Virus record (IMG/VR): IMGVR_UViG_3300007512_001108
Span: 1 to 64,000 of that record
Origin: a virus
Length of the DNA: 64,000 nucleotides
Direction: 5' to 3' (one strand)
Shown here: positions 543-21,447 of the stretch, piece after piece
Numbering within the stretch: the stretch's first letter is position 1
Layout of the letters: each line of letters begins with the position of its first letter
Notes under the pieces: generated by a model
Told to the model about the DNA's origin: nothing
The model's database searches: none
What the model saw: the letters and a program-made list of their open reading frames with translations, nothing else
Program-made: the position numbers and the translations under genes

Positions 543-570
543 AATATAGCATAAATTTAATTAAAATCCA
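543..570 (-). promoter_or_regulatory. Possible sigma70-type promoter for dut
   Basis: Minus strand TGGATT-16 nt-TATATT with an extended -10 TGn (TGC TATATT). Confidence 0.4.
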
Positions 571-5322: not shown

Positions 5323-6672
5323 TTACTTTTTTACCTTCTTTCTTTTCTTATATTTAGTCTTTGGAGAACTCATTTTTGTACTTTTCTTTGGGGTGTTTTT
5401 CTTTTTTTGTTTCAATTCTTTCTTCTTTTTAGATTCTTCCATTTTATACATTACATCTCTTTGATGCTTTCTTTGTTGTTCTTGGAATTGAGATTTTTGA
5501 ATCTCATCAACTTTTTGATTATACATTTTAAGATTATTATCAATTCTTTCCTTTTCGGTGTCTGGGAATATATTATCTTCAAGAAGTTTTTTACAAGCAA
5601 TTTGACCACCTATGTAATCGTGACTATAAAAAGCAGTTGCCGCTAATTCGTCTAATGATTGCCATTTATACACATCATCGGATATAAAGAGAATATCGTG
5701 TTCTGGATATGGTATTTGACATGCTCTTTGAGCAAATAAATATGCGTGATTAAATTTTCCTGCTTGTCTATACAGTCTTGATAATTGATGTAAAGGTTCT
5801 GCACGAATTGGACGATATGCATATGCATCTAAGAATTTTTGTTGTATTGTTTCCCAAGGTTCATCCTTCAATACAGAACAGATTGCAACACGGAATAAAG
5901 AGTAATATGCTTCTTCTTCCCACCCACCAAGTTCTGCTCTCTTTTGATATGCTTCCATTGCATTGTCTACTTGCTGTGAATCAAAATATGATTGAGCAAG
6001 ATAGAACCAGTAACGATGATTGTCTGGGTCATAATATGGACTGTCTTCGTTGGTAACAGCATCAAGAAGCATATCAGCATCTCTTGAATACTTTTCTACA
6101 GGGTCTATACCTACATTTCTTGCACCCAATGTTCGTGCTTCGATGTGGTAATCTCCATAAACTCTTTGTTGGGAAAATGGTTTCTTATCACAATCAGCAT
6201 ATTCGTGGAGAATTCCAGTATAGTGCCAACCAATTCCTGTTTTGAATATTTGATTTCTCCACCAAGTAAAATCACCTCTCTGAATACACAAAGAATAAAC
6301 ATCATACTGTTTCATATTGGGTGGAAATTGGAAATCCCCATCAACAAAGTCATCCGCATCGATAACCCAAGCAAAGTCTGCTTTACCATCACAATTACGA
6401 AGTGATTCAGTTCTACTACCAATTCCTTTTGGAGAATCACCAAACCCTTTCCAATCTGAACGATATACTTTGCCTGGAACTCCATTCTTTTCCATAAACT
6501 TTTCTATCAGTTCGGGAGTTCCGTCAGTAGAACCTGTATCTGTGATATCATACCTATCGATATAAGGAAGCATAGACCTTAGACACTCTTCGATAATATG
6601 TGTTTCGTCTTTTACAATCATACAAAGAGTAATTGTAATATCTGGTGGTGTTATTTTTTTCACTTTACTCAT
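5323..6672 (-). CDS. GT2 glycosyltransferase with C-terminal TPR repeats
   Basis: LCMIVKDE...DTGSTDGT...IDADD (DxD)...LHEY, followed by TPR helices (WFYLAQSYFD, AEPLHQLSRLYR). Confidence 0.9.
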   Translation of the reverse strand: MSKVKKITPPDITITLCMIVKDETHIIEECLRSMLPYIDRYDITDTGSTDGTPELIEKFMEKNGVPGKVYRSDWKGFGDSPKGIGSRTESLRNCDGKADFAWVIDADDFVDGDFQFPPNMKQYDVYSLCIQRGDFTWWRNQIFKTGIGWHYTGILHEYADCDKKPFSQQRVYGDYHIEARTLGARNVGIDPVEKYSRDADMLLDAVTNEDSPYYDPDNHRYWFYLAQSYFDSQQVDNAMEAYQKRAELGGWEEEAYYSLFRVAICSVLKDEPWETIQQKFLDAYAYRPIRAEPLHQLSRLYRQAGKFNHAYLFAQRACQIPYPEHDILFISDDVYKWQSLDELAATAFYSHDYIGGQIACKKLLEDNIFPDTEKERIDNNLKMYNQKVDEIQKSQFQEQQRKHQRDVMYKMEESKKKKELKQKKKNTPKKSTKMSSPKTKYKKRKKVKK

Positions 6673-6673
6673 A

Positions 6674-7522
6674 TCAAACTTCTTCCTTTTCTTTTAATAC
6701 AGCAGATTCGAAATCTGCCCAATCCCATTTATTTCTATAATTTTTATTCTGTTCCCAAATAGACTTTAAAATGATAGGGTCTAACTTATATTCTTCCATA
6801 GTATGTATTAGAGAATTTATATCTTTTGGGAAACAAGTTCCTCCAAATCCATAATTTCCATCTGGTCCTGGAACATCATAATGACTGTTCCCTATTCTGT
6901 TATCAGAAATTACACCCTTTACAATTGTATCGTAATTGATATTATTTATTTCGTCTACTAAAACTCTCATTTCGTTGAATATCATTACTTTTGATGCAAG
7001 AAAACAATTTGCAAAGTATTTTACACATTCTGATTCTGTTGATTTCATTGTAATTACTGGTATATCTGGAAAACACATTCTATAAAAGTCGTAAAGTGGT
7101 TCTATCCATTTTTTCTTTCCGCCAATTACATGTCTGTCTGCATTTATAAAATCTTCATTTGCTTTTGCCGCTGTCAAAAATTCTGGATTATGAATTATTT
7201 TTAGATGTGGATATTTTTCTCTCAACCTTTCTGTTGTTCCGATTGGAACGGTAGACTTAATTATGAAAATACCCTCACATATTGAAGGTAGTGTCGAAAA
7301 GAATTTTTCAACGATGGAAAGGTTGCACTTACCCCCTTCTATATCTACCATTGGTGTTGGAAGACAAACAAAAACAAATTCAGAAAATACTGCATCGTTA
7401 TAGTGGTGTGTACATCTTTCTGGTAGCGAATCATATATTCTAATATCTGCAAAATCCTTTAATCCGTTTGCAACTGCTCCTCCAACAAATCCATTTCCTA
7501 TAATTCCTATTGTTTTTTTCAT
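6674..7522 (-). CDS. ugd: UDP-glucose/GDP-mannose 6-dehydrogenase family (short phage form)
   Basis: GNGFVG, CLPTP, IKSTVPIGT, NPEFL, KYFANCFLASK and catalytic GGTCFPKD. Confidence 0.9.
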   Translation of the reverse strand: MKKTIGIIGNGFVGGAVANGLKDFADIRIYDSLPERCTHHYNDAVFSEFVFVCLPTPMVDIEGGKCNLSIVEKFFSTLPSICEGIFIIKSTVPIGTTERLREKYPHLKIIHNPEFLTAAKANEDFINADRHVIGGKKKWIEPLYDFYRMCFPDIPVITMKSTESECVKYFANCFLASKVMIFNEMRVLVDEINNINYDTIVKGVISDNRIGNSHYDVPGPDGNYGFGGTCFPKDINSLIHTMEEYKLDPIILKSIWEQNKNYRNKWDWADFESAVLKEKEEV

Positions 7523-8469
7523 TGTATATAATCTTTCAAATGTTTAACAAATCCCACTGGTGTAAAATATTCTTTCCATATATTTCTATTTTTTACTTGT
7601 ATCTCTAAAATCCTACTTGCACTAAGATTTTTATGATAATCTACTAATATGTCTACAATATTATTTATATCTGATTCTGGTATAATTAATGCTTGTTCTT
7701 TCCAATCTATAATATTTTCATATGGTAATACACAGTCTGTATCTAATAATACTGGTATTCTTCCGTGAGATAAAACTTCTCCAAATCTAAAGGAAAAATT
7801 ACCTGCTCCTCTACAACAAAAACCATATAATGAATTTCTTATATTTGAATTGAATTCTTGTATTGCAATATGCTTTGGAATTCCTGGCGCCCAAAATCCA
7901 TTTCTTATAATAAAGTTAGTTTGTACCAAATCAGATTCGTGTAATAATCTAAGTCCTTCTACTCTGGTAGGGTGTGTAAGTCCACCACAAAACGAAATAT
8001 CTGGTTTTTCGTTTTTAAATTGTGATGTATTGCTTTGAAAGAAATCTGCACAGAATGGAGGTATTGCATATTCGTTTTTCTTTTTTGTGGATTTATAAAA
8101 TGATGTTCTGAGAATAATACACTCATCTCCTAATGGTAGTTCCTCTGCGGAATCGTCATTAAATATTACCATTATTTTCTTTCCAGCAGATTTTGCTTCT
8201 TCAATATACGGAGTAGCATCTGAATGTCCATATTTAAACGGAAGTAAGACCAAATCACAATCTTCAATAGAAGTTAATTTAATATAATTTTTTGCATCTC
8301 TTATAAGAATTTCAAAAACTGGTTTTCTATTATCTGGTGTATCATCTCGATTCAGATATTTGTGTTGTTGTTTTTCTGTTAGAAATGGAACAACTGCTGG
8401 CAATTCTCCTGTTGCACACAACCAATCGTCATTGAAGTTTTTTAAATTGATATAAACTTTAGTTTTCAT
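7519..8469 (-). CDS. Exostosin-like (GT47) glycosyltransferase
   Basis: ISFCG...SLYGFCCRGAGNFSFRFGEVLSHGRIPV...LPYENIIDW. Confidence 0.8.
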   Translation of the reverse strand: MKTKVYINLKNFNDDWLCATGELPAVVPFLTEKQQHKYLNRDDTPDNRKPVFEILIRDAKNYIKLTSIEDCDLVLLPFKYGHSDATPYIEEAKSAGKKIMVIFNDDSAEELPLGDECIILRTSFYKSTKKKNEYAIPPFCADFFQSNTSQFKNEKPDISFCGGLTHPTRVEGLRLLHESDLVQTNFIIRNGFWAPGIPKHIAIQEFNSNIRNSLYGFCCRGAGNFSFRFGEVLSHGRIPVLLDTDCVLPYENIIDWKEQALIIPESDINNIVDILVDYHKNLSASRILEIQVKNRNIWKEYFTPVGFVKHLKDYIQ

Positions 8470-9599
8470 AACGCATTTAACTCTTTACACAACACTTGTA
8501 CCATCTCTGGTGTTACATCTTTATGGTTTCCAACATAAATACAATTCTTATGAATTTCATTGACATTTTTATCAAATATGTCTTGCTTTATCTTATCCAT
8601 AAATGGATGTTCATATAGATTTCCTGCAATACAGGGACGATACTCAACACCAATTTCTTTTAATTTGTCTTTAATTTGTTGTAGATTATTTCTTCTTGTG
8701 AAAATAGGAAATGCAAAATTACTACATCCTGTCGAAACAAAGTCTGTTTTATAAAGATTGTTATCAAGATTTTTGATAAATGTATAATAATTATCATTCC
8801 TGTGTTTAATAGATTCATCTAGATGTGGAAGTTGCATCAAACCAAGTTTTGCGTGTAAGTCTGTGTTTCTTACATTAAATCCATCACGCAAGAAAGTAAA
8901 CAGAGGGTCTACTCTATCGCACTTTCTTTTTTCTTGTTCTTCTTTTGGAAGTTCTCTCAAAAGTCCGTGTGAACGAAGAAGCAACATTTCATGATACAAA
9001 TCTTTATCATCTGTACAAATCATACCACCTTCAATTGTTGTCATGTGGTGTCCATAATAAAAAGAAAATGAAGAAGCAATACCGTGCGTTCCTACTTTCT
9101 TTCCTTTAAACTCTGCACCGTGGGACTCACAACAATCTTCTATCAATCCGACTCTATACTTAGAACATAATTCGAGCAACTCATCTGACAGTGCAGAGAA
9201 TCCTAAAAGATGTGTAAGAAGTAAATAGTTTGGTCTTTGCGTCTTGAAAATATATTCCAAGTTATCCAAGTCAGGACCAAAGTTAGTCAAGTCTACATCA
9301 CATAATTGTAAATTTGAAAATTGTATGATGGGAGAAACAGCAGTAGACCAAGTACATGCTTGAGATATCCATTTAGTTCTAGCAACACCATCTGACAATG
9401 CTCTTGCTATAAGAAGATTTGCGGATGAACCAGAATTGACATAAACAGAATATTTACAACCCAACCATTCTGACCATTCTTTTTCAAATTGTCTAACAAC
9501 ATTACCCTGAGTTATTTTACTTGAGTTACAAACAAAATCTCCAAGAACATTTCGTTCTTCTTGAGTAATTGCATCATCTGTCATCAATTTCCAATTCAT
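8466..9599 (-). CDS. colD: GDP-4-keto-6-deoxymannose 3-dehydratase, ColD-type (DegT family)
   Basis: VNSGSSANLL, EDCCESHGA and SFYYGHHMTTIEGG (His at the catalytic Lys position); lacks the Cys-rich Fe-S insert of RfbH/E1. Confidence 0.75.
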   Translation of the reverse strand: MNWKLMTDDAITQEERNVLGDFVCNSSKITQGNVVRQFEKEWSEWLGCKYSVYVNSGSSANLLIARALSDGVARTKWISQACTWSTAVSPIIQFSNLQLCDVDLTNFGPDLDNLEYIFKTQRPNYLLLTHLLGFSALSDELLELCSKYRVGLIEDCCESHGAEFKGKKVGTHGIASSFSFYYGHHMTTIEGGMICTDDKDLYHEMLLLRSHGLLRELPKEEQEKRKCDRVDPLFTFLRDGFNVRNTDLHAKLGLMQLPHLDESIKHRNDNYYTFIKNLDNNLYKTDFVSTGCSNFAFPIFTRRNNLQQIKDKLKEIGVEYRPCIAGNLYEHPFMDKIKQDIFDKNVNEIHKNCIYVGNHKDVTPEMVQVLCKELNAL

Positions 9600-10693
9600 A
9601 ATAAAAATTCCTCTAACTTATTTATAACTCTCATTTGATTTTCTTCTGATAAGTTATAAGAAGATGGCAAAGAGATTCCGCTATCAAATATACTCATACT
9701 TGTTTCATAATTTCCAACTTTTCTAATTTCGTTATTATAACACGGTTGTGCATTTAACGGATAGAAAAATTCCCTAGATTGTATATTATTTTCTTTTAGA
9801 AAATCCATTAGTTTATATTTTTCGCAAGAAAGAAAAGATGTAAACCAATGAACAGGAGTACAGTTCTTTGAATCTTCAATTGGAACAAACCCAGAATTTA
9901 ATGAACCTAATTTTTCATAATACAAATCATGAATCTCTTTCTTTCTAGAAATAATATCTGGCAATTTCTTTAGTTGTGAAATACCAACTGCCGCTTGCAT
10001 CTCCGTAAAGCAAAAATTATATCCTATGTGATGATGTTTGAATGTGCCCTTACCATCTCTTCCGTGATTTTTAAGACGATAACATGCGTTACGGAGTTCC
10101 TCATCGTCTGTGAGAACAACACCACCTTCTCCACAAGTAATAGTTTTGTTTCCATAGAAAGATAGAATACCCAAATCACCAAAAGTACCTACATGTTTTT
10201 CTTTATATAAAACACCAACTCCCTGTGCGGCATCTTCTATAACTTTAATATCATGTAATTTTGCAAATTCTAAAATTGCGGTCATATCTGAACTCTGTCC
10301 ATACAGATGAACTGGCATAATTGCTTTTGTTTTGTTTGTAATGCATTCTTCTGCTTTTTTGATATCTATCTGAAAAGTTTTTGTACCCACTTCACACAAT
10401 ACAGGTGTTGCACCTGTCATAATGACAGCATTGGCAGTTGCAATAAATGTAATGTTTGGCACGATTACTTCGTCACCTTCTCCAATACCGAGTGCTTTCA
10501 AACAACAGAATAAAGCGGCAGTTCCATTCGTCATAGCAACTGCATACTTTGAACCTGTCATTTCACAAATCATTTCCTCGAATTCTTTTGTTAGATTATG
10601 CTCGACAACATATGTTGAATCGACTACTCGTTTCAACTCGTCAAGTTCTCTATTGTCAATCCAAGGTTCAATTTGCGTTATAAAGTTGGTCAT
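9596..10693 (-). CDS. per: DegT/DnrJ PLP sugar aminotransferase, GDP-perosamine synthase-like
   Basis: NGTAAL, PVHLYG, EDAAQ, SFYGNKTITCGEGG and HHHIGYNF. Confidence 0.8.
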   Translation of the reverse strand: MTNFITQIEPWIDNRELDELKRVVDSTYVVEHNLTKEFEEMICEMTGSKYAVAMTNGTAALFCCLKALGIGEGDEVIVPNITFIATANAVIMTGATPVLCEVGTKTFQIDIKKAEECITNKTKAIMPVHLYGQSSDMTAILEFAKLHDIKVIEDAAQGVGVLYKEKHVGTFGDLGILSFYGNKTITCGEGGVVLTDDEELRNACYRLKNHGRDGKGTFKHHHIGYNFCFTEMQAAVGISQLKKLPDIISRKKEIHDLYYEKLGSLNSGFVPIEDSKNCTPVHWFTSFLSCEKYKLMDFLKENNIQSREFFYPLNAQPCYNNEIRKVGNYETSMSIFDSGISLPSSYNLSEENQMRVINKLEEFLL

Positions 10694-11054
10694 ATGATTT
10701 TTGTTCTCTCACATCAGATTCATAGTATTCATTAATTCTTTTCTTTATCAAGAATCTTTCATCATTATATTTTGCATTAAGTCTTGCGAATTGTATAAAT
10801 TCATCATCGAATTCTTTCTTGCTTTCTTTATCTCTAAATCCAGATTCTGTATCCCATATTTTTATATTAATGTCTTTTAATTCATCATATAATCTTCCTT
10901 TTATTTTTACACCATCATCCTTTAGTGCTTTTTCTAGAATATCCTTTTCTCCTTGAATATAAAATAATCTAGACTCGTCAGAAATTCTTTCCAACTTAAT
11001 ATCCAATATGGTTATCTTATCAAAAATTTCACCAATTGCAACTTCTACTTTCAT
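10668..11054 (-). CDS. DUF6165-like helical protein
   Basis: GEIFDKITILDIK...INIKIWDTE...FIQFAR...NDERFLIKKRIN...EQKSY. Confidence 0.6.
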   Translation of the reverse strand: MKVEVAIGEIFDKITILDIKLERISDESRLFYIQGEKDILEKALKDDGVKIKGRLYDELKDINIKIWDTESGFRDKESKKEFDDEFIQFARLNAKYNDERFLIKKRINEYYESDVREQKSYDQLYNAN

Positions 11055-11695
11055 ACTATATCTCCAAACTTATTCTCTTTGTATGCGACCAAATCTTTTT
11101 CTTCTATTGATTCTAATTTCCAGTCACTGGGAAGAAGTTCATTCAACTCCAAAAATGAAAAGTTCCAATTTTCACTGTCGTCAATCATTCCTTCCCATTT
11201 ATAGCGGTCGCATGTTGTTTTTTCTACCTTGTGTGGTGTTCTTGCCAGATAAATGATATTGCAAAATTCAAACATTCTAGAAAAGCACTCCTTTGGTTTC
11301 CTTAGCATTGTGAATGTACTATCGAAGTAAATGACATCTTGTTTGTTTCCTATGATGTCCCCAATTCCATCTTCCTCAATGTCAAATAAATGAAATGTTG
11401 CTTTCTTGTTTTCTGAAAAATGATTATATGCAAATTCAATTGCACTTGGGTTTACATCAATACCAATATATGTCTTTAAATTTTCTGGCAAGAAATTCAA
11501 AAGTCTACCACAACCACAACCAACATCGACAACAGAGAAGTATTCTTTGGAAAATGTCCTAGACAACCAATTCAAGAATAATTTATGTGGTTCATTTGAA
11601 TGAAAATGGCATGGAAGTCCGTCTGAATCTTTTCCATATATTTCCTCAAACACCTCTTCTCTGTACCATTGATTATCTCTTGCCCGTTCGTTCAA
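11051..11695 (-). CDS. Class I SAM-dependent methyltransferase
   Basis: VVDVGCGCGRL...YIGIDVN motif I/II. The start codon is uncertain (TTG). Confidence 0.8.
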   Translation of the reverse strand: MNERARDNQWYREEVFEEIYGKDSDGLPCHFHSNEPHKLFLNWLSRTFSKEYFSVVDVGCGCGRLLNFLPENLKTYIGIDVNPSAIEFAYNHFSENKKATFHLFDIEEDGIGDIIGNKQDVIYFDSTFTMLRKPKECFSRMFEFCNIIYLARTPHKVEKTTCDRYKWEGMIDDSENWNFSFLELNELLPSDWKLESIEEKDLVAYKENKFGDIV

Positions 11696-12609
11696 ATTAT
11701 ACCCCTTTCTTCTAATTTCATATTTGTTAATCTCTGTAGTAGTTCAAACTTAGAACCTTCTTCAATTGGTAGATGCTTCTTACTTGAATTGTGCCAGTGC
11801 CAAGCAAATGCTTCAAGATAAAGATTATCATCTGCATAACCATTGTTTGCAAACCAACCTGCTTCTACATTTTCACTAAGTTCCTTGTCTTTCTTGCTGA
11901 TTAACCATTCGGTGTTGAAGAAAGGTGATGGGAATATTGTATATTCGTATCCTCTTCTCCAAAGAGATGCAAATAATTCTTTACCCCAAATGGTAGTACC
12001 ACCAATAATTGGCATTACTTTAAGTTCTTTAAGAAGTTCATACGAAAATTCACTTTCCTTCTTGAGTGCAATAACCGTTGCACATGCACCTTGATTTGCA
12101 AAGTCTGTTTCCGAACCCCACTGGTACATATACTCTTGGTCAAGAAGACATTTGAAGTCACGAAGGAAGATAATATCCATATCAATCCACACACCACCGT
12201 ACTTATGAAGTGCAAGCAAACGAAGCAAATCACTTTGTAGATAATGTTTATCATCTTCGGATGTAAGTTTTTGTACCTCATCCTCAATGATTGTTCCCTT
12301 TGCTTCTTCTAATCCATCCCACACCCTCAAGTCAAGGTATTCTTTATACGGTTGAATTCTAGGATTGTCTTCAATACAATAATCTGACCATACTATTAGT
12401 TTTGTTTTTTCTAGGTCTTGTGTTGCAAGAAAAGACTTAATGCATTCAAGTTCTTTATCGGTTCTTACTTCGGTATAAACATGAAAGTTTGTTACTTCTT
12501 CGGGATACTCACAACTACAATCACAAAGTTCATCAAGAAATTCAAGACACGCTTCATAATCTTTATAATATTCTGGGTGTGTTTTAAAACTCATTTCAAT
12601 CATCATCAT
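11692..12609 (-). CDS. GT32-like DxD glycosyltransferase
   Basis: SDLLRLLALHKYGGVWIDMD and AWHWHNSS. Confidence 0.85.
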   Translation of the reverse strand: MMMIEMSFKTHPEYYKDYEACLEFLDELCDCSCEYPEEVTNFHVYTEVRTDKELECIKSFLATQDLEKTKLIVWSDYCIEDNPRIQPYKEYLDLRVWDGLEEAKGTIIEDEVQKLTSEDDKHYLQSDLLRLLALHKYGGVWIDMDIIFLRDFKCLLDQEYMYQWGSETDFANQGACATVIALKKESEFSYELLKELKVMPIIGGTTIWGKELFASLWRRGYEYTIFPSPFFNTEWLISKKDKELSENVEAGWFANNGYADDNLYLEAFAWHWHNSSKKHLPIEEGSKFELLQRLTNMKLEERGII

Positions 12610-13462
12610 TTTCCTTTATATAAGACATACAAAAGTCTGTCGCTTGCAGTTTTCTATTTAATAATTTAGAAATGGCGATTGCTCCAACTAAATCATCTTC
12701 TCTGTCCATATCATCAAATATAAACCATACATCTTTATTTATTTGTAGTTTTTCTTCTTTCAAAAGTTCATACATTTTACTTCTTTTTCCCCCTGCTGGT
12801 CCATCTACAAAAATCAAATCATAAGTTTTATCTTTCAAGAACTCATTTACCAAATCAATATCATACCAATCGTCTTTAATGGGAGCGTGTAAATACTCTG
12901 AATCATATTCACCCACCCAATCTTCATCTTCTTCTATTGAAATCATTTTGAAATGTTTTGAGAGAATTTCTGTACCTTTACCACTACCAAATTCAAGGAT
13001 TGTAGAACCCTTTTCAAAATTTGATATAATATATTCTATTGTTTTGTTATTAGCGGTCATTTCCGTTTTATTTATCATCCATCCGTGATTTGTCATCATT
13101 AACTGATAATGTGGAGTACTTTGTGCGAACATTAATGATTCAGCATCGACTGTATATGTTGGGGAGAATTCATTCTCACATATAGATACACCCAGTTCTT
13201 CAATAAACTCCATTGCATTCCTTTCAGACAAAAATAACAAATCTGTAAGTGATATTGTGGATGAACCATCATCTGAAAGAGTTGGTAATGTTACTACAAG
13301 AGTATCTGAAATGTCCTCACCGTGTTCATTTAAAATTCTTTTATCTTTAAACTTAAAAGAATCTTTGTGCATACCTAAAACATTGCGACCGTCCCAAATA
13401 TATTCATCTTTATTTTCAACATAATCATTCATACTAAACCAACTGCTTTTTTTTACATACAT
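12596..13462 (-). CDS. SAM-dependent methyltransferase domain fused to an unknown N-terminal domain
   Basis: ILEFGSGKGT...SIEEDEDW...YDLIFVDGP...FDDMDR in the C-terminal half. Confidence 0.7.
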   Translation of the reverse strand: MYVKKSSWFSMNDYVENKDEYIWDGRNVLGMHKDSFKFKDKRILNEHGEDISDTLVVTLPTLSDDGSSTISLTDLLFLSERNAMEFIEELGVSICENEFSPTYTVDAESLMFAQSTPHYQLMMTNHGWMINKTEMTANNKTIEYIISNFEKGSTILEFGSGKGTEILSKHFKMISIEEDEDWVGEYDSEYLHAPIKDDWYDIDLVNEFLKDKTYDLIFVDGPAGGKRSKMYELLKEEKLQINKDVWFIFDDMDREDDLVGAIAISKLLNRKLQATDFCMSYIKENDDD

Positions 13463-14351
13463 CCATTATCTTGTCTGCGTGTGTTTTTACACTTAGAAAC
13501 TTTTCTACATTTGATAAGTCATGTTCTTCTGATGATACCCTTTTAAAGAATTCTTCATCTACCTCATCCCAACTTTTTACAAAATATCCTGGTAGATTAT
13601 ATTCTTCAAATAATCTCTTAACCGTACAATCAATTGTAATTGGAATACACCCCATCAATAAAGATTCATAGAGTCTATGAGTATCATTTCCGCTTCCTTG
13701 AATACAGAGTGTAAATCGATATGAACCAATCAATTTCATATACGGTTCAATTGAAAGTTTACCTTGCATTAGGTGGGTGTATTCATTATTCTTTAAACTG
13801 TTGATAATATTTTGTCTTTCAGGATTTGTAGATTGGTCGTGCCAAGGAACAAAAAATAAATTTGCTTTTTCTTCAAACGGTTTTGTTTCTCTTCGTAATT
13901 TCTTTAAAACATTTTGATTTGCAGAAAGTCTATTTGGTTCTGCAAATCCTATAGGAAGTGCATGAATCTTTTCGTGTTCTTCATTTGGAGGATTGGTACA
14001 AAACCAATTTTGAAGATATTCGTTCTCTAAAATTTTCTTATAAGATTCTGGATTATCTCCATCTCTTCCAATTTGATAAGCAGAACATCCTGTTACTAAA
14101 CTAAAAGGAGTTTTAATTTTATCTAAAAAATTAGATTGAAATTCTTCGTGTATGATAAAATCTGTTTTGGCAAATATAATATCATTTTCTTTCATATTTT
14201 CTATTTCTGCTGGTTGAAAAAGTTCTTTATCGTGTAGTCGTTTTACTCCCCAGTTTACATAAAATTCTGGTGGATAGTCTATACAGTGGTCTGCAACCAA
14301 TGGCATCCAATTATAACAAACAAGTCCACTTTCTAGTTTAAATTCTGGCAT
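13434..14351 (-). CDS. Exostosin-like (GT47) glycosyltransferase
   Basis: WFCTN...ALPIGF...FTLCIQGSGNDTHRLYESLLMGCIPI. Confidence 0.75.
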   Translation of the reverse strand: MPEFKLESGLVCYNWMPLVADHCIDYPPEFYVNWGVKRLHDKELFQPAEIENMKENDIIFAKTDFIIHEEFQSNFLDKIKTPFSLVTGCSAYQIGRDGDNPESYKKILENEYLQNWFCTNPPNEEHEKIHALPIGFAEPNRLSANQNVLKKLRRETKPFEEKANLFFVPWHDQSTNPERQNIINSLKNNEYTHLMQGKLSIEPYMKLIGSYRFTLCIQGSGNDTHRLYESLLMGCIPITIDCTVKRLFEEYNLPGYFVKSWDEVDEEFFKRVSSEEHDLSNVEKFLSVKTHADKIMDVCKKKQLV

Positions 14352-15075
14352 CGTATTTCACCTCGTTCCATTCTCTTACTGTGCTGTTTCCCAAATATCC
14401 AGAAGCACCTTCTCTAAAATTATGAAAGAACAATTCATCTGTTGTATCTAGAATCTCTACGAGTGACCTAAAGGCACTTTCCATGCAATGAATTTGTTTT
14501 GCTTCTTCTAATACCATTCCAAAATGGAATAGGTTTTCTGTTATATCATTTCTAATAATTTTGATATCTTTTGTTCCTGCGATATGTTCCAATTCTTCAA
14601 TTGGAATCTCAAAACCACGATTGGCATCATCGTGAACAAAAATATATTCTTCGTTGTCTGGATTTAATTTTTCATATACCCTTTTTTCTTCTTCTTCATC
14701 TCTTTCATAGTAAAAATCATCGAATCTTCTTTCGTAGGGTATATCCATTTGTGAATAAAATATTTCTGCACACCCCATTCCTAATTTTTCTTCTTGTCCC
14801 CAAGGATAGTAATCGTGACCAACTTTAATAAAATTAATAATATCGTTTTCTGATATGAAATTACTTATATAATTATATTCGTCTTCATTGGGAACTTTAA
14901 TTATATTAATATTTGATTCATCTCTGTACATATATTTTATCATATCAAAATATTTTTCTTTTGCAAATACATTTACGCTATCAAAATCATATTCTTCAAG
15001 AAAAATTCTTATCATTGCGTTACAGTCTATGTGGTCACCTAATCCCAAATGGTGGTGTACATATAATTCACTCAT
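14338..15075 (-). CDS. Putative GT-B fold glycosyltransferase (GT9/GT11-like GLGD motif)
   Basis: N-terminal HHHLGLGDH, YIFVHDD and EAKQIHCMESAF; lies within the glyco cluster. Confidence 0.5.
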   Translation of the reverse strand: MSELYVHHHLGLGDHIDCNAMIRIFLEEYDFDSVNVFAKEKYFDMIKYMYRDESNINIIKVPNEDEYNYISNFISENDIINFIKVGHDYYPWGQEEKLGMGCAEIFYSQMDIPYERRFDDFYYERDEEEEKRVYEKLNPDNEEYIFVHDDANRGFEIPIEELEHIAGTKDIKIIRNDITENLFHFGMVLEEAKQIHCMESAFRSLVEILDTTDELFFHNFREGASGYLGNSTVREWNEVKYDARI

Positions 15076-15734: not shown

Positions 15735-16432
15735 CCTGAAATAATTTCTAAAATACTATCCATATCAAAATTTTTATTCTTTCTTTCTTCAAAAACCTTT
15801 CCATCAATTGCATACATTTCTGCATTTTCATTTCTTGCGTGTAATTCGTCAAATGGTTGGGGTGTCCAATCGTGTCTAAAAATACAAACTGGTGAGGTAA
15901 TTAATTTTCCCATACCTTGACAAACCATAGTCATTTCGTTATCTGCATAAACAGATGTATAATCTGGATGATAGACATAACCAAATGCTTTATATAAGTT
16001 CCAACCCAAAACAGGTAAAGTCATTAACAAATCTGTTCTTGGTCGTAATCCATCAAAGAATTTAATTGCACCATCCATTGATGGAAAATGTTGTTCCATA
16101 CCTTGCATAATTATATCATCAAAATCTGGGAAACAAGGAATCATATCATCCGAAACCAATAATAAAACATCACCCTCTTCGTTTTCAAGATTGGCATTAC
16201 ATGCTTCTATTTTTGATTTTGAATCTCCGTAGTGATAAACCAAATCTACATCTAGGTCATCCATCCACTTACGAATTTCATCATTGTTCATAGTTTCATC
16301 ATCATTATCTAAAGTAATGACAAACCGAACATCGTGTTTTCCAGATAGCAAGTCGATACTCTTTCCTAAAATATGTTTAAATTTATCAGGACGGTTTCTG
16401 GATGCTAACTTGTATATTAATTTTCTTTTCAT
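15731..16432 (-). CDS. GT2-like glycosyltransferase
   Basis: SRNRP...LDNDD...KIEACN...VSDDM...YHPDY...YADNE. Confidence 0.65.
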   Translation of the reverse strand: MKRKLIYKLASRNRPDKFKHILGKSIDLLSGKHDVRFVITLDNDDETMNNDEIRKWMDDLDVDLVYHYGDSKSKIEACNANLENEEGDVLLLVSDDMIPCFPDFDDIIMQGMEQHFPSMDGAIKFFDGLRPRTDLLMTLPVLGWNLYKAFGYVYHPDYTSVYADNEMTMVCQGMGKLITSPVCIFRHDWTPQPFDELHARNENAEMYAIDGKVFEERKNKNFDMDSILEIISG

Positions 16433-16454
16433 AATAAAAATCTCAATTTGTGTT

Positions 16455-16871
16455 TTAGTGTTTATTTCCTATATGATATTTGGGACACAATTCCCAATCA
16501 CCCTTTTCTTTGTGTGAAATAATCTTTATTTGTGCTATAGAAGCAACTGGTTCTTCTGTCTGGTCTTGGTCTACAATTTCTAATAATTCCCAATCCTCTA
16601 ACAAATTGGCAATAGTATTTCTTCTAGCAATATCATTTTCTTCTATGTTTGTCGGAAGTCCATCCAGTGCAAATAATTCTTTAAAATGCACAATATAATA
16701 TTTACCCTTTTTATGAAGGATATGACAGGACTGATATAATTTTTTTTCTTTTCTAGAAGAAACGCCTATTCTTGTTAGGGTTTCTTTAATTTTTAAGAAG
16801 TCTTCTGATTCAAATAATTCAATTTCAACCAAGTCTTCTATTTTTATTTCTGTTTTTTCCATAACTATCAC
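16455..16871 (-). CDS. regA: T4-type translational repressor RegA
   Basis: DFLKIKETLTRIGV...LYQSCHILHKKGKYYIVHFKELFALDG...RRNTIANLL...PKYHIG. Confidence 0.97.
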   Translation of the reverse strand: MIVMEKTEIKIEDLVEIELFESEDFLKIKETLTRIGVSSRKEKKLYQSCHILHKKGKYYIVHFKELFALDGLPTNIEENDIARRNTIANLLEDWELLEIVDQDQTEEPVASIAQIKIISHKEKGDWELCPKYHIGNKH

Positions 16872-16911
16872 TTATCCCTTGTTTTAACTAATCATAGCAA
16901 TTTTCCTACTT

Positions 16912-16919
16912 TATTTATA
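16912..16919 (-). promoter_or_regulatory. T4-type late promoter ahead of regA and the glyco cluster
   Basis: Exact TATAAATA on the minus strand; it overlaps the upstream stop codon. Confidence 0.55.
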
Positions 16920-17832
16920 CTTTTTGTGCATTACAGGAAGCAATCCAATCTTCAAGAGAAATAGTTGGTTTCCAATCTAAAAGCATTTCTGCTTTTTCAA
17001 TATTTGCCAGAGAGTATCTAACCTCTCCTAATCTTTGTGGGATGTGAATATAGTCTGCGTTTTTCCCTCCAACCATATCCACCAATTCTAGAATATTATA
17101 ATTTTTTCCAGTACCAATATTAATAATTTCACCGAATACTTTATTGTTTTCTGTTGTGGCTGCTTTTATATTTGCTTCTACCACATCACCGACATATGTA
17201 AAATCTCTTCTTTGTAGTCCATCACCAACCACCGTCATTGGTTCTCCGTCTTCGTATTGACGGAAGAATAATCCTATAACTGGAGCATATTGTCCTTTTA
17301 CTGGTTGTTTTTCTCCATACACATTAAAATATCTAAATGTTACAGTTTCCATCCCATACAGGTTGTGAAACATTTTACAAAGTTCTTCTCCTGCACACTT
17401 GGTTATGGAATATGCATTTAAACAATCGGTATTCATATCTTCTATTGAAGGTATTTCATTCTTCACACCATACGAAGCAGATGTAGAGGAATATACAAAT
17501 CTCTTTACGCCATTTTCTTTTGATGCTTGAAGAACATTACAAGTTCCATACACATTTGTTTTTGCAGTAAGTGTTGGATTGTGTATAGCGGGTTGAATTC
17601 TTGCTTCTGCGGCTAAATGAAAAACACAATCAACCCCATTAAAAAGGGGTTCTATTTTATCGTAATCACAAATATCATATTGATAATTTTCTGAATTTGA
17701 GTTCCAATAAAACGATTCGTGACAATCTGTAGATTCATTGTCTATTACAATTACCGAATGTCCTAGTTCTAATAGTCTGTCAACTATTGTAGAACCAATA
17801 AATCCTGCTCCACCTGTAACTAATGCTTTCAT
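16915..17832 (-). CDS. NAD-dependent NDP-sugar epimerase/dehydratase
   Basis: VTGGAGFIGS, HLAA, YSSTSASYG, YxxxK (YSITK), RYFNVYG and RDFTYVGDVV. Confidence 0.92.
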   Translation of the reverse strand: MKALVTGGAGFIGSTIVDRLLELGHSVIVIDNESTDCHESFYWNSNSENYQYDICDYDKIEPLFNGVDCVFHLAAEARIQPAIHNPTLTAKTNVYGTCNVLQASKENGVKRFVYSSTSASYGVKNEIPSIEDMNTDCLNAYSITKCAGEELCKMFHNLYGMETVTFRYFNVYGEKQPVKGQYAPVIGLFFRQYEDGEPMTVVGDGLQRRDFTYVGDVVEANIKAATTENNKVFGEIINIGTGKNYNILELVDMVGGKNADYIHIPQRLGEVRYSLANIEKAEMLLDWKPTISLEDWIASCNAQKV

Positions 17833-18212
17833 TTTTTACCACCTGTATATAAATATTTTGTCATTTCTTCAATGTCAGAATCTGCAAACATATTTACAAC
17901 TTCTCTTGCTTTTCTATCAGAATATCCATAATATTCTTTTATTACATTTACCTTTTGACATTCTTCATTCTTTAACCATTTACTATAACGCTTTCTTTTT
18001 CTAATTATATTTAACAGATAGTCAAAATGCATTTTCTTATCTATTGAAGGACAAGAATTCATTTCATTAACATAAAATATAGTATCTGGAAAATAAGAAA
18101 GACACCTATTAATAACAAAAGGCGTATATTTCTTTTCTACAAACTCATCCTCTGTATCAAGTAATGTTTCCTTTGTGTGATTTATTGCTTTTAGATATTC
18201 AGATAATTTCAC
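17829..18212 (-). CDS. 62: Clamp loader small subunit gp62
   Basis: YTPFVINRCLSYFPDTIFYVNEMN...IRKRKRYSKW...EYYGYS..KA; T4 gene order. Confidence 0.92.
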   Translation of the reverse strand: MKLSEYLKAINHTKETLLDTEDEFVEKKYTPFVINRCLSYFPDTIFYVNEMNSCPSIDKKMHFDYLLNIIRKRKRYSKWLKNEECQKVNVIKEYYGYSDRKAREVVNMFADSDIEEMTKYLYTGGKK

Positions 18213-18553
18213 TTAATCTCCACATCATCTCCGATGACAGCAACAATATGTTGTCTTCTTGTTAAAATGAATGGTCCCATATCGTGAAACCCTGCGTGTT
18301 TATCGTGCAGAATCCTGTCACCCTCTTTGAAATCTACAGGATAATAATTACCATTATCGTCTGGAATTCCTTCTGCTATAGAAATAACAACACCATCACC
18401 AAAACGGTCATGTTCTCTTTCGTTGTATATAATTCCTGCATCGGTCTGGGTTTTCTTTGGAGTTGGTTTAATTGCTACCATATCACCAATAGGTTTGAAT
18501 GCCTGACCGTCTTCTATTTTAGCACTACCTAGTGCATATCGTTTGTCTACCAT
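18209..18553 (-). CDS. groES: Co-chaperonin GroES (Cpn10) family protein
   Basis: KPIGDMVAIK...TDAGII (mobile loop)...GVVISIAEG...KEGDRIL..KHAG...IVAVI. Confidence 0.8.
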   Translation of the reverse strand: MVDKRYALGSAKIEDGQAFKPIGDMVAIKPTPKKTQTDAGIIYNEREHDRFGDGVVISIAEGIPDDNGNYYPVDFKEGDRILHDKHAGFHDMGPFILTRRQHIVAVIGDDVEIK

Positions 18554-18571
18554 AATATAATCCTTTCTTCT

Positions 18572-19525
18572 TTATTTATACTCACATTCTAACATCAATT
18601 CCGTTAAACAAGCAGTTAAATTAATTTCGTGGTCTGCAACAAATGCTGATTTGTATTGATATTCAGAAATTATTAATACTGCTTGTGGAATTGACTGCGG
18701 TTTAAAGTATTCATATAGCCCATCATATATTTTTCTAAAGATATGAACTTGGTCATTATCTAAATTATCAACTACCCATTTTCTAACATTTGTGAATTCT
18801 TTTTCTTTCATTGATGTTATGAGGTTTTTAATTTTTATCTCACCGATTTGAGTAAGAATGCCAATGTCTATAGAACCTGCAACCGAATATCTTTGCAATT
18901 CATTAATTACCCTTCGGAAGTCTGGAAAATGTTTCATAATTAATTCTGCTAAAACCTTATCATCCGAAGGTATATTCTCTCCATCAAGAATGTACTTGAT
19001 TCTTTCCATAAATTCATTAGCCAATGTAGGTTTTTCTTGCTTTGGTATCTTGAATTCTATACAGGTACATCGAGAATGAAGTGGTTCTATAATTCTGTTC
19101 TTGTAATTGCAAGTAAGAATAAACCTACAATTACCACTGAATTCTTCGATGAATCCACGAAGTGCAGGTTGTGTAGATTGTGCGTTTGAGTAATCAAATT
19201 CGTCAAGTATTACTACTTTCTTTCCACCAGATATAGAAACTGTACTTGCAAAATTACGAATCTTTGTTCGGAGTGTATCGATGTTTCCGTCTTCTGAACA
19301 GTTAATTACAATATAGTCTGCATCTAACTCCTCGCACATTGCTCTTGCAATTGTTGTTTTACCACATCCTGCTCCACCAGATAAAAGAAGATTTTGAACT
19401 TCTCCAGAATCAACCATTCGTTGAAATGTTTCTTTGATATCTTCTGGAAGAATACAATCTCCAATAGTCTGTGGTCTGTACTTTTCTACCCACAAATATT
19501 CTTTAGTTTCTGTTTCTGTAATCAT
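18572..19525 (-). CDS. 44: Clamp loader ATPase gp44
   Basis: LWVEKYRP, GGAGCGKTT, ILDEFD, SRC and FPDFRR. Confidence 0.97.
   Translation of the reverse strand: MITETETKEYLWVEKYRPQTIGDCILPEDIKETFQRMVDSGEVQNLLLSGGAGCGKTTIARAMCEELDADYIVINCSEDGNIDTLRTKIRNFASTVSISGGKKVVILDEFDYSNAQSTQPALRGFIEEFSGNCRFILTCNYKNRIIEPLHSRCTCIEFKIPKQEKPTLANEFMERIKYILDGENIPSDDKVLAELIMKHFPDFRRVINELQRYSVAGSIDIGILTQIGEIKIKNLITSMKEKEFTNVRKWVVDNLDNDQVHIFRKIYDGLYEYFKPQSIPQAVLIISEYQYKSAFVADHEINLTACLTELMLECEYK
18573..18580 (-). promoter_or_regulatory. T4-type late promoter ahead of groES
   Basis: TATAAATA formed by the last codons of gp44, 20 nt before the groES ATG, with an AAGGA SD between them. Confidence 0.6.
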
Positions 19526-19534
19526 AATATAATC

Positions 19535-20542
19535 CTATTTCGTTGTATCATACGGTGTCCAAACATCTTTTATTGCTTTATAATAATTTTCATCATTAAA
19601 AATCATATCATCCATTAAAGTTTCAAATGTGTATTCTGGTTTCCATCCTAGTTTTTCGCGAATTTTGGTAGAATCTCCTTTAAGGTCGTGAAGTTCTTCT
19701 GGTCTTAAATATTTTTCATCTAATACAACATAGTCTTTATAATTAAGTTGAAGTCTGTTAAAAACATATTCACAACAATCACGAACACTATGTGAAATAC
19801 CAGTTGCACAACAATAATCTTCTGGTTTATCTTCTTGCAACATCATCCACATTGCTTTTACATAATCCTTTGCGTGTCCCCAATCTCTTCTTGCTTCAAG
19901 ATTTCCCATACGAAGTTCTGTTGCTTCTCCTGCTTTAATAGCAATTGCACCCTGTACAATCTTACTGGTTACAAAATTAGAACCTCGTCTTGGTGATTCG
20001 TGATTGAATAATATACCATTACTAATATGCATACCATAAGAATGTCTATAATTTCTTACTATATTAAATGCATAAACTTTTGCACATCCATAGGGACTTA
20101 CAGGTAGCATTGGTGTTGTTTCTCTTTGGTATCCATCATCGTCAATACAGTTTCCAAACATTTCCGAAGAACTTGCTTGATAAATTCTTGCATCTGGACA
20201 TACTAAACGACACGCTTCTATAACTTTTAATACACCAACAGCATCTGCTTCTGCTGTATATATTGGCACATCAAAACTAATTCTCACATGAGATTGTGCG
20301 GCTAAATTGTATACTTCGTCTGGTTTAACTTTTTGTAATATATTAATTAAAGATGATAGGTCTGTCAAATCACCATAATATAAATGAAGTTGGTCATAAC
20401 AACTATCGAGTCTTGCAGTTTGATTTTCAGCAACTGAATTTCTTTTAAGAATTCCGTGTACCTCATATCCCTTTTCTATAAGAAATTCTGCGAGATAAGA
20501 ACCGTCTTGTCCGTTAATACCTGTAATTAATGCTTTTTTCAT
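19535..20542 (-). CDS. gmd: GDP-mannose 4,6-dehydratase
   Basis: ITGINGQDGSYLAE, YNLAAQSHV, YQASSSEMFG, GILFNHESPRRG and RDWGHAKDYV. Confidence 0.97.
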   Translation of the reverse strand: MKKALITGINGQDGSYLAEFLIEKGYEVHGILKRNSVAENQTARLDSCYDQLHLYYGDLTDLSSLINILQKVKPDEVYNLAAQSHVRISFDVPIYTAEADAVGVLKVIEACRLVCPDARIYQASSSEMFGNCIDDDGYQRETTPMLPVSPYGCAKVYAFNIVRNYRHSYGMHISNGILFNHESPRRGSNFVTSKIVQGAIAIKAGEATELRMGNLEARRDWGHAKDYVKAMWMMLQEDKPEDYCCATGISHSVRDCCEYVFNRLQLNYKDYVVLDEKYLRPEELHDLKGDSTKIREKLGWKPEYTFETLMDDMIFNDENYYKAIKDVWTPYDTTK

Positions 20543-21447
20543 TTTCTTGCCTTTTCATAATTTTTAATAAACCACTCAATACTTTTCTCCAATCCTTCTC
20601 TCAATGGAGTAAAATCAAAATCAGGATAATACTTTCTAAACTTTTCGTTTGATGCAGGTTTTCTATACTGTCCTTCTAGTCTGTCAGACTCGTATATTAC
20701 TTTACCAGAAAAATCCATAATATCAACAATATTATCTACAATTTCTGAAATAGAAACTTCATCACTGGAAGATAATATCATAGGAATTGATTCATTATAA
20801 GATTCTAGTGCCATTAGTGCAATTTTACCTACATCCTCCGAATATAAAAATTCTCTCATAGGTTTTCCACTTCCCCAAATGACAAAATCAGTATTATCTC
20901 TTTTTGCTAAATAACATTTGTGTATTAGTGCAGGTATTACATGACTATCATTTAAATCATAATTGTCATTTGGACCATATATGTTACAGGGTATTAGTGT
21001 AACAAAATTACATCCGTATTGGTCACGGTATGCTCTACTTTGAACATCTACCATTCTTTTTGCATATGCATATGCGTAATTAGTATGGTGGGGCTCTCCG
21101 TTGTGCATATATTCTTCTTTTAAGGGATAATCTACTTTGTCTGGAAACACACAAGTAGACATAAACGATACTACCTTTTTAATTTTACATAGTCTAGCCG
21201 CTTCTAGAAGATTTGTATTTATGATAATATTGTGATAAAAGAATTCACCCAATTTATCGCTGTTTGCTTTTAGTCCACCAACTTTTCCTGCACAATGGAC
21301 AATATAATCGATTTTATTCAATGTGATATATCTCACAATATTATCAATGTGCATTAAGTCCATATATTGTCTTGATGGTTTAAAAGAAGAGTCAATTGTT
21401 GAACCAACTAATCCACTTCCTCCAGTTACCAGTAAATTATTTTTCAT
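20539..21447 (-). CDS. fcl: GDP-L-fucose synthase / ColC-type epimerase-reductase
   Basis: VTGGSGLVG, AGKVGG, STCVFP, YAYAKR, NIYGPNDNY, HVIPAL and WGSGKPMREF. Start moved to MKNNLL at 21447. Confidence 0.93.
   Translation of the reverse strand: MKNNLLVTGGSGLVGSTIDSSFKPSRQYMDLMHIDNIVRYITLNKIDYIVHCAGKVGGLKANSDKLGEFFYHNIIINTNLLEAARLCKIKKVVSFMSTCVFPDKVDYPLKEEYMHNGEPHHTNYAYAYAKRMVDVQSRAYRDQYGCNFVTLIPCNIYGPNDNYDLNDSHVIPALIHKCYLAKRDNTDFVIWGSGKPMREFLYSEDVGKIALMALESYNESIPMILSSSDEVSISEIVDNIVDIMDFSGKVIYESDRLEGQYRKPASNEKFRKYYPDFDFTPLREGLEKSIEWFIKNYEKARK

Follow-up and report, generated by a model that had tools for sequence, protein, structure and literature searches.

The window analysed here, the first 64 kb of one 74.7-kb virus contig (IMG/VR record IMGVR_UViG_3300007512_001108), carries an island of glycosyltransferase, sugar-nucleotide and methyltransferase genes that ends in a gene for a family 2 glycosyltransferase with tetratricopeptide repeats (GT2-TPR). 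We favour, with somewhat more confidence than doubt, the reading that this island is a phage-encoded cytoplasmic O-glycosylation system for the tail, neck and fibre proteins of the phage itself. The reading combines enzyme identities and folds, which are observed, with an acceptor, a link between the sugar cassette and the priming enzyme, and a timing of expression that we infer. A sequence-only reading of the same DNA had proposed a multi-sugar, methylated glycan on the phage particle, and its claims are taken up where the relevant results are given. All genes of the window lie on the minus strand; coordinates are collected in Table 1.

The N-terminal part of the GT2-TPR protein is a GT-A domain with a DxD motif: it matches PF00535 (6.6e-8), and the sequence DADD is invariant across 25 homologues. 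The C-terminal part is a TPR-like domain, which matches TPR_14 at 1.7e-5 (over the Pfam cut-off) and TPR_2 at 2e-4 (under the cut-off). In an AlphaFold (AF2) model built from 25 homologues (predicted local distance difference test score, pLDDT, 88.4), helices occupy residues 191-425, and TPR structures were matched at Z 14-15. When the protein sequence was compared with the PDB, the sole glycosyltransferase match at E<=1 was the glycosyltransferase (GT) domain of GmaR (4.6e-7). Foldseek comparison of the model returned SunS/ThuS as the top match (E 4e-13) over the GT-A and helical parts, and VIA gave SunS/ThuS at Z 22.2 (root-mean-square deviation 2.8, 268 residues) and 20.9; the next family, WrtF, aligned over the GT-A domain alone at Z 15.7, and TarS and RmlT scored about 14. 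The enzyme is nearer to GmaR, SunS and ThuS than to polysaccharide or teichoic-acid GT2 enzymes, with GmaR closest in sequence and SunS/ThuS in fold, and the earlier assignment to the GT2+TPR type, whose members are commonly protein O-glycosyltransferases, stands. Judged by sequence and modelled fold, it is a GmaR/SunS/SgtA-type protein or peptide glycosyltransferase, and it is a candidate priming protein O-glycosyltransferase.

GT2-TPR is followed by two genes that the sequence-only reading had called structural in type, a description now upheld for p151 by its fold and for the 1412-aa protein by its collagen-like start. The AF2 model of p151 (pLDDT 88.8) is an immunoglobulin (Ig)-like sandwich with a central insert rich in G, S and T. 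Its top matches in solved structures were T5 tail-tip chains (7qg9), baseplate chains of DT57C and 80alpha, and the baseplate of a mycobacteriophage; the predicted viral structures that it matched were BppU_N-domain proteins and the N-termini of minor tail or fibre proteins. The p151 domain forms the N-terminus of a 483-551-aa Gly-rich protein in two relatives (L053 and L054), and p151 is single-copy in five large relatives; a tblastn search of the phage collection gave no match. The 1412-aa protein has six G-X-Y triplets from residue 9 and contains 16.6% Gly and 10.2% Thr. Just two relatives (52-57% identity) were found among 5.8 billion proteins, and none in Pfam, PHROG, PDB or, by tblastn, the phage collection, a near-orphan state that is as expected of a fast-evolving fibre.

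Relatives of GT2-TPR fall into more than 1,700 protein clusters at E<=1e-5 and occur on 332 IMG/VR contigs. We fetched 80 related loci, 63 of which were non-redundant with enough downstream DNA. The layout across the 80 was regA, a variable cassette, GT2-TPR, p151, Gly-rich open reading frames (ORFs), dcd, a MazG-like gene and gp43; cassette content varied widely, and GT2-TPR was always the last cassette gene. Among the 63 loci the gene directly after GT2-TPR was p151 in 37, a Gly-rich ORF in 16, dcd in 5 and another gene in 5. A fibre-module gene thus lies directly downstream in 53 of 63 loci (84%), a placement from which the substrate is only inferred, and the adjacency is common, not obligatory. 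The commonest cassette genes near GT2-TPR were relatives of the short-chain dehydrogenase/reductase (SDR) gene, one of which lay among the ten genes upstream in 48 of 75 loci and immediately before GT2-TPR (position -1) in 26.

These neighbours bear on the possibility that the acceptor is not a virion protein at all, and that the enzyme instead modifies a protein of the host to aid takeover, or a small peptide of the glycocin kind. A TPR domain can take any protein as its partner, and the nearest solved structures are glycocin S-glycosyltransferases; however, in none of the 80 loci does GT2-TPR adjoin a gene for a small Cys-rich peptide, the neighbours there being p151 and Gly-rich proteins. 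A large and variable sugar cassette also suits an exposed surface better, and a motif excess in virion proteins, described below, would go unexplained. We regard a non-virion acceptor as quite improbable.

Among cellular proteins, the closest relatives of GT2-TPR (loci L093-L170, in bacterial genomes) are 35-47% identical over about 370 residues, come mostly from Mycobacterium and other Actinomycetota, and are usually longer (590-1000 aa). A very Gly-rich repeat ORF lay within a few kb of the bacterial relatives in 21 of 58 loci; most of these are mycobacterial, and such genes are abundant in mycobacteria, so no inference was drawn from it.

A candidate acceptor motif, G-x-[S/T]-[G/A], is in excess on the contig. 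With 54.7 copies expected from protein-by-protein shuffling, 171 were counted (3.1-fold), and the reversed motif is 1.5-fold over expectation. At the third position S is enriched 3.3-fold and T 3.2-fold, the next-best residue reaching 1.7-fold. The excess is found in the 1412-aa protein (46 vs. 9.7 expected) and in proteins of the baseplate, tail and fibres encoded at 44-71 kb; it is weak in the sheath and was not found in replication or sugar enzymes. The gp15-like tail-completion protein, encoded outside the island, has 6 sites vs. 0.6 expected, and its counterparts in three positive relatives have 5-7 vs. 0.5-0.6. Over all proteins, three large GT2-TPR-positive relatives showed motif ratios of 1.9, 2.0 and 2.7. 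In contrast, Pelagibacter phage Mosig and Methylophilales phage Melnitz, in neither of which a profile search found GT2-TPR, gave 1.25-fold and 1.16-fold with no directionality, and their gp15-like proteins, with 1 and 0 sites respectively, lack the G/S/T-rich C-terminal tail.

The late-promoter consensus that the sequence-only reading had placed before regA is borne out: the TATAAATA site there has an extended GTATAAATA context in common with the sites before gp23, gp22, gp19, gp18 and cpn10. Over the whole window TATAAATA is not enriched (12 vs. 8.4 expected), and its placement alone is informative. Only 1.6% of the contig is intergenic, and 8 of the 11 coding-strand copies on it are placed 19-80 nt ahead of a start codon, GTATAAATA being shared by six of these eight. 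No terminator-like site or separate late consensus was found between the island, p151 and the fibre gene, so that the latter two would be read through from the island; all terminator-like sites lie within genes, and sigma-70-like promoters were not enriched. For the relatives we counted a relaxed form, [ACT]TAAATA, within 60 nt of the start for each gene class. It preceded regA in 5 of 9 cases, GT2-TPR in 25 of 71 (35%), p151 in 16 of 44, downstream Gly-rich genes in 20 of 70 and cassette genes in 33 of 694 (5%). The difference between GT2-TPR and cassette genes is marked (Fisher p 4e-13), many of the GT2-TPR cases coming from one sub-lineage. We take the motif in relatives as moderate support, and for late timing only.

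Other promoter-like sequences were also seen. Two more coding-strand copies of TATAAATA within the island, at 9619-9626 (19 nt before the ColD-like start) and at 7662-7669 (139 nt ahead of the start of the short Ugd-like gene), are possible internal late promoters. The GroES-like (Cpn10) gene at 18209-18553, between gp44 and gp62, has its own GTATAAATA (promoter 18573-18580) 19 nt before its start and within the end of gp44. In relatives such as L008, L010, L016 and L075, a different sequence, CATA[CT]ATA (often ACATACATATA), occurs in the 60 nt upstream of p151 (11 of 44) and regA (3 of 9) and before just 3 of roughly 1,200 other genes. This lineage may use it as a further promoter or regulatory element.

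If the island glycosylates the virion, the run would be transcribed late, from the promoter before regA and together with p151 and the fibre gene. The TPR part of GT2-TPR would bind virion proteins, and the enzyme would place a first sugar on Ser or Thr in G-x-[S/T]-[G/A]. The 1412-aa fibre and p151 are candidate acceptors, as are proteins of the baseplate or fibres and the gp15-like protein through its C-terminal tail. The glycan would then be extended with phage-made deoxy and amino sugars by the GT47-like, GT32-like, A64R domain 1-like and other glycosyltransferases, and methyltransferases would cap it. Among relatives the sugar cassette would vary in the manner of a serotype locus, with the priming enzyme conserved.

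The six nucleoside diphosphate (NDP)-sugar enzymes listed by the sequence-only reading are all present, namely Gmd, Fcl/ColC-like, SDR, Per-like, ColD-like and short Ugd-like proteins. The Per-like protein, whose top PDB match is the perosamine synthetase 3bn1, keeps the catalytic Lys and is a paralogue of its neighbour, the ColD-like protein. Gmd and this Lys-containing Per-type aminotransferase together constitute a guanosine diphosphate (GDP)-perosamine pathway, with substrate specificity predicted from sequence. Residues 23-361 of the ColD-like protein align with E. coli ColD, SFYYGHH standing opposite ColD's SFYSHH, and His-His occupies the aminotransferase Lys position. For a GDP-colitose pathway, Gmd and this His-type ColD are present, and the third member would be the Fcl/ColC-like protein, which at 218 bits falls under the NF047922 cut-off of 500; ColC and Fcl are both possible. 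Its gene probably starts, judged by start context, at the ATG at 21447, where the sequence-only reading had the island end. Gmd and the ColD-like, Per-like and Fcl/ColC-like proteins can, on these predictions, convert host GDP-mannose to GDP-perosamine and to GDP-colitose or GDP-fucose.

The short Ugd-like protein keeps the GGxCxPKD catalytic Cys motif and has the NAD-binding and central domains. The C-terminal uridine diphosphate (UDP)-binding domain of a three-domain UDP-glucose 6-dehydrogenase is absent from it. That the gene is a broken one, a pseudogene, was considered and rejected because the same short form recurs in many relatives. Ugd-like forms of 280-307 aa lie just upstream of GT2-TPR in L002, L009, L011, L012, L015, L018, L023, L034 and L067. 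Together with the SDR protein, the short Ugd-like protein points to a putative second branch that makes UDP-sugars.

The earlier count of about seven glycosyltransferase-like genes fits the present annotation, in which six are supported and one is a lead. For the GT47-like protein encoded at 13434-14351, the PF03016 score of 30.1 bits is below the Pfam cut-off of 33.4. The 233-aa protein has an SDD motif that is invariant in four homologues. The family profile of the 220-aa protein (14 homologues) had a sole PDB match, 2p6w, which is domain 1 of PBCV-1 A64R (E 3e-4), with the DxD aligned. The lead is the 245-aa protein, for which the nearest named Atlas cluster, Glyco_transf_9 (GT9) at 0.93, offers a weak hint; it had no match in Pfam, NCBIfam, PHROG or PDB. 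Family profiles of the 245-aa and 233-aa proteins gave no match in the PDB, and Pfam scans of family members of the 245-aa and 288-aa proteins returned nothing usable. Of the two S-adenosylmethionine (SAM)-dependent methyltransferases proposed earlier, the one at 11051-11695 is clear and the 288-aa protein at 12596-13462 is tentative: a GxGxG-type motif is conserved in its 162-aa homologues, its matches to SAM methyltransferases in the PDB are weak (E 0.014), and KtrA was matched at 4.3e-5. The DUF6165 protein was found in six related cassettes and adjoined the Per-like gene wherever neighbours were seen; the Atlas ties it to giant-virus clusters with a share of 25%, as a lead only.

Table 1. 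Features of the glycosylation island and associated genes; positions refer to the 64-kb window.
Feature	Coordinates	Strand	Basis or remarks
1412-aa Gly/Thr/Ser-rich fibre-like protein, best candidate acceptor	561..4799	-	Translation; collagen-like N-terminus
p151, Ig-like BppU_N/T5-p132-type protein, probable fibre-docking virion protein	4819..5274	-	phrog_1084; AF2 fold
GT2-TPR glycosyltransferase, 449 aa, last island gene	5323..6672	-	Pfam GT2 + TPR; Lys-rich C-terminal tail
Short Ugd-like NDP-sugar dehydrogenase, 282 aa	6674..7522	-	PF03721 + PF00984 only
GT47/exostosin-like	7519..8469	-	PF03016 3.8e-11
ColD-like pyridoxamine phosphate (PMP)-dependent 3-dehydratase	8466..9599	-	PDB 2gms/3gr9 ColD 1.2e-51; His replaces Lys
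Per-like GDP-perosamine synthase, pyridoxal phosphate (PLP) aminotransferase	9596..10693	-	PDB 3bn1 3.8e-69; Lys in SFYGNK
DUF6165 protein	10668..11054	-	PF19662 7.1e-13
Class I SAM-dependent methyltransferase	11051..11695	-	Methyltransf_31, _12, _25; 1e-10 to 1e-8
GT32-like DXD glycosyltransferase (Gly_transf_sug)	11692..12609	-	PF04488 8.5e-9; PF05704 2.3e-6
288-aa protein, possible second SAM methyltransferase	12596..13462	-	Rossmann-like C-terminal half
GT47/exostosin-like	13434..14351	-	PF03016 4.1e-7; RXYLT1_C 3.1e-6
Viral family protein, 245 aa, possibly GT-B-like	14338..15075	-	Atlas lead only
GT-A glycosyltransferase related to chlorovirus A64R domain 1, 220 aa	15072..15734	-	Family profile vs. 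PDB
GT-A-like glycosyltransferase, 233 aa	15731..16432	-	phrog_14945 glycosyltransferase 4e-7
regA translational repressor, upstream boundary of overlapping run	16455..16871	-	PF01818, 9.7e-45
Late-promoter consensus TATAAATA	16912..16919	-	40 nt before regA start, coding strand
SDR NDP-sugar epimerase/dehydratase	16915..17832	-	PF01370 4.9e-61; no equivalog assignment
GDP-mannose 4,6-dehydratase (gmd)	19535..20542	-	PF16363 7.8e-121; TIGR01472 2.6e-123
Fcl/ColC-like GDP-4-keto-6-deoxymannose epimerase/reductase	20539..21471	-	NF047922 1.5e-64; Epimerase Pfam
gp15-like tail-completion protein, candidate acceptor outside island	44254..45132	-	Motif-packed G/S/T-rich C-terminal tail

The contig is read as an uncultured marine T4-like myovirus from its gp44 affinities and its PHROG matches to structural genes. 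Its gp44 is at most 60% identical to counterparts in Melnitz, Mosig and cyanomyoviruses; gp23, gp22, gp20, gp19, gp18, gp17 and tail or fibre proteins were matched at 33-61 kb; and the sequencing runs that contain the stretch are marine metagenomes. Absence of psbA from five large relatives, including a complete 147-kb one, argues that this is not a typical cyanophage lineage. In a megablast search the island had no match in the phage collection, and the isolated T4-like phages of that collection contain no relative of GT2-TPR.

In order of transcription, the genes are gp46, a 534-aa protein, a 138-aa protein, RNase H, a 65-aa ORF and gp45; then Fcl/ColC-like, gmd, gp44, GroES-like, gp62, the SDR epimerase and regA; and finally 13 overlapping genes ending in GT2-TPR, p151, the 1412-aa protein and dcd. 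The 13-gene run consists of glycosyltransferase-like genes, methyltransferases and the Per-like, ColD-like, short Ugd-like and GT2-TPR genes. The gene-level observations of the sequence-only reading hold as a whole, including the overlapping stop and start codons from regA to GT2-TPR, and are corrected in one respect: the cluster is not a single block, as the fcl-like gene, gmd and the SDR gene are interleaved with gp45, gp44, cpn10 and gp62. The 534-aa protein (23617-25221), between gp46 and RNase H, has a weak DNA methyltransferase match in its C-terminal part only (PF01555 4.5e-4, under the Pfam cut-off; phrog_498 9e-7), its N-terminal 390 residues lying outside the match.

This arrangement leaves room for a split of functions, in which GT2-TPR, like SgtA, would attach just one sugar to proteins of the fibre or neck, and the cassette would serve host surface glycans or nucleotide-sugar metabolism, lying where it does only because the regA-dcd gap is an insertion hot spot. 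GT2-TPR is conserved and the content of the cassette highly variable, and sugar genes are also scattered among the replication genes here and elsewhere in the genome of a complete relative, G001 (147 kb, terminal repeats, 100% complete). For SgtA itself, no glycan-extending enzyme was found in vitro (PMC7157674). The tight frame overlap from regA to GT2-TPR and the invariable position of GT2-TPR at the end of the cassette nevertheless tie the two together, and the methyltransferases and the A64R domain 1-like glycosyltransferase recall the protein glycans of giant viruses. We consider a division of this kind improbable. At one site in G001 (L087, 81095-88562), another gmd copy and a 330-aa gene precede, by about 1.2 kb, the genes for Gly-rich proteins of 741 and 663 aa, with two short opposite-strand ORFs between the two pairs; there, GDP-sugar and fibre-like genes are paired away from the main island.

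The main rival to virion glycosylation is host-envelope remodelling, in which the cassette would alter the O-chain of host lipopolysaccharide (LPS), the capsule or the S-layer through the host's carrier, flippase and ligase, with a block to superinfection as an effect that it could have. Perosamine and colitose are classic O-antigen sugars, soluble O-antigen glycosyltransferases need no membrane span of their own, and GT47-like, GT32-like and capsule-synthesis-like families are all present in the island. No initiating transferase, flippase, polymerase or ligase was found in the island or in the 792 cassette ORFs of the 80 related loci, however; those ORFs include no polytopic membrane protein, and none of 29 genes here encodes a hydrophobic span of transmembrane level (maximum 19-residue hydropathy <1.6). 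The sequence-only reading had taken the lack of a flippase, polymerase or membrane anchor as an argument against O-antigen conversion. The lack itself is sustained by hydropathy, and the membrane components of an O-antigen/capsule or Gtr-type seroconversion system were not found, but the argument is weak, since the host could supply them and soluble glycosyltransferases could use its lipid-linked intermediates. Other evidence fits envelope remodelling less well: the sole conserved enzyme belongs to a type that modifies proteins or peptides, a late promoter and co-orientation with a fibre gene suit poorly a function that needs time to reach the surface, and the motif excess in virion proteins is left unexplained. 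It is also the standard published reading for cyanomyovirus and pelagimyophage clusters (PMC7029224, PMC12801897), and we give it a minor but appreciable chance.

A further alternative would place the sugars on modified bases, as in the glucosylated hydroxymethylcytosine of T4 and in other phage DNAs that carry glycans. The island is situated within the replication cluster and adjoins dcd, and some phage glycosyltransferases are known to attach diverse glycans to DNA (Pyle et al. 2024, cited in PMC12619734). Yet PF00303, the thymidylate-synthase family that includes dCMP/dUMP hydroxymethylase, is absent from the contig and from three relatives, among them the 100%-complete genome, and relatives carry a ThyX-like gene, so that a T4-style sugar on hydroxymethyl bases is unlikely. 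GT2-TPR, moreover, resembles protein and peptide glycosyltransferases, not DNA glucosyltransferases. DNA hypermodification appears to us extremely improbable.

Several further points weigh against glycosylation of the virion. Seven glycosyltransferases with deoxy and amino sugars look like machinery for building O-antigen, and soluble glycosyltransferases normally act on lipid-linked intermediates, which a host can provide. The region that corresponds to the island is an early/middle replication cluster in T4, no RNA run is listed among the runs that contain the stretch, exact TATAAATA precedes regA in 1 of 12 relatives, and the late-type motif is missing before gp23 and gp18 in G001, where it is poorly calibrated. 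In the 5 of 63 loci with dcd directly after GT2-TPR, p151 and a collagen-like gene lie about 9 kb further on, and adjacency may merely reflect a shared hyperplastic region such as that described for pelagimyophages (PMC7029224). No motif excess was found in the capsid, portal or tube proteins of the contig. The excess was seen only in carriers of GT2-TPR; because the four positive genomes form one lineage, set against two negatives, this amounts to about one independent evolutionary contrast.

Taken together, these data argue for a part of what the sequence-only reading proposed. A glycan on the phage's own particle is consistent with the type of GT2-TPR, its adjacency to fibre genes, the motif, the late promoter and the absence of membrane genes; as a statement about the whole particle it is too broad, because capsid, portal and tube are without the excess. 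The multi-sugar, methylated character of the glycan is less secure, as the other glycosyltransferases, the GDP-sugar genes and the methyltransferases are tied to the acceptor by their shared operon alone.

In marine T4-like phages, gene clusters for glycosyltransferases and sugar-nucleotide enzymes are routinely catalogued as auxiliary metabolic genes for host LPS, and to our knowledge phage-encoded virion glycosylation has among tailed phages so far been established only for mycobacteriophages. We suggest, tentatively and with a little less than even confidence, that a globally common, uncultured marine T4-like lineage practises sequon-directed O-glycosylation with SgtA/GmaR-type priming, and that its 'LPS' cassettes are particle serotype loci. 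If true, phage-encoded virion glycosylation would extend to an abundant marine group, and both the counting of such genes in ocean viromics and our understanding of the host range of phages, their decay and their losses to grazing or adsorption would change. The finding also offers a single enzyme, a short motif and a small set of candidate acceptor proteins as objects for study, and expressing the proteins in E. coli requires no culture of the phage.

The proposed priming step resembles, by analogy, those of SgtA-BclA3 and GmaR-flagellin. C. difficile SgtA transfers N-acetylglucosamine (GlcNAc) onto Thr/Ser in the GPT collagen repeats of BclA3, and sgtA lies directly upstream of bclA3 (PMC7157674). 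Both SgtA, which was compared by description only, and GT2-TPR are soluble, with an N-terminal GT-A domain and C-terminal TPRs, and are encoded upstream of a collagen-like or Gly-rich surface protein; the N-terminal motif is of the same type, as read from the cloning primer in that paper, and the SgtA acceptor, Thr/Ser after Gly-x, fits the motif enriched here. The present enzyme differs in being viral, 449 aa long, with a long helix and a Lys-rich tail, and in following a large sugar cassette, and its candidate sites are mostly scattered G-x-S/T-G, not long GPT repeats. GmaR of Listeria monocytogenes (PDB 22ao; PMC9638930) likewise has its GT domain ahead of the TPRs and acts in the cytoplasm on a surface filament protein, transferring GlcNAc to flagellin; at 637 aa it has linker and anti-repressor domains that are absent here, and just about 100 residues align. 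SunS and ThuS (PDB 7msn, 7msp, 7msk) give the best match in structure, across the GT-A and helical substrate-binding parts, but at 13-16% identity, and they target Cys of small secreted peptides, for which no gene lies near GT2-TPR.

The overall logic, again by analogy, is that of mycobacteriophage and giant-virus glycosylation. In mycobacteriophages, phage enzymes glycosylate the phage's own particle at C-terminal parts of structural subunits (Freeman et al. 2023, as summarised in PMC12619734). The motif-rich C-terminal tail predicted for the gp15-like protein is a likeness to these systems; their targets are capsid and tail tube, which have no motif excess here, the hosts and phage lineage are different, and the cassette here is far larger. 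Giant viruses (PBCV-1 A064R/A061L and Mimivirus; PMC9614988) likewise cluster sugar-nucleotide pathways, several glycosyltransferases and methyltransferases. In Mimivirus the fibril protein gene adjoins the cluster, and domain 1 of PBCV-1 A64R, to which one glycosyltransferase here is remotely related (E 3e-4), builds the capsid glycan (PMC9614988). Their hosts are eukaryotic, however, their glycans are N-linked (PBCV-1) or polysaccharide-on-fibril, and no GT2-TPR priming enzyme is described for them in the same paper. The 'LPS/cell-wall' clusters of cyanomyoviruses and pelagimyophages (P-SSM2, S-SCSM2R; PMC7029224, PMC12801897) also belong to marine T4-like phages, contain many glycosyltransferases and NDP-sugar epimerases, and lie in hypervariable regions that hold tail-fibre genes as well; they differ in being read as host-surface modifiers and, among the isolates in the phage collection, in having no GT2-TPR. 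Compared with the mycobacteriophage and giant-virus systems, what differs here is the phage lineage, the type of enzyme, the candidate sequon, and the size and variability of the cassette.

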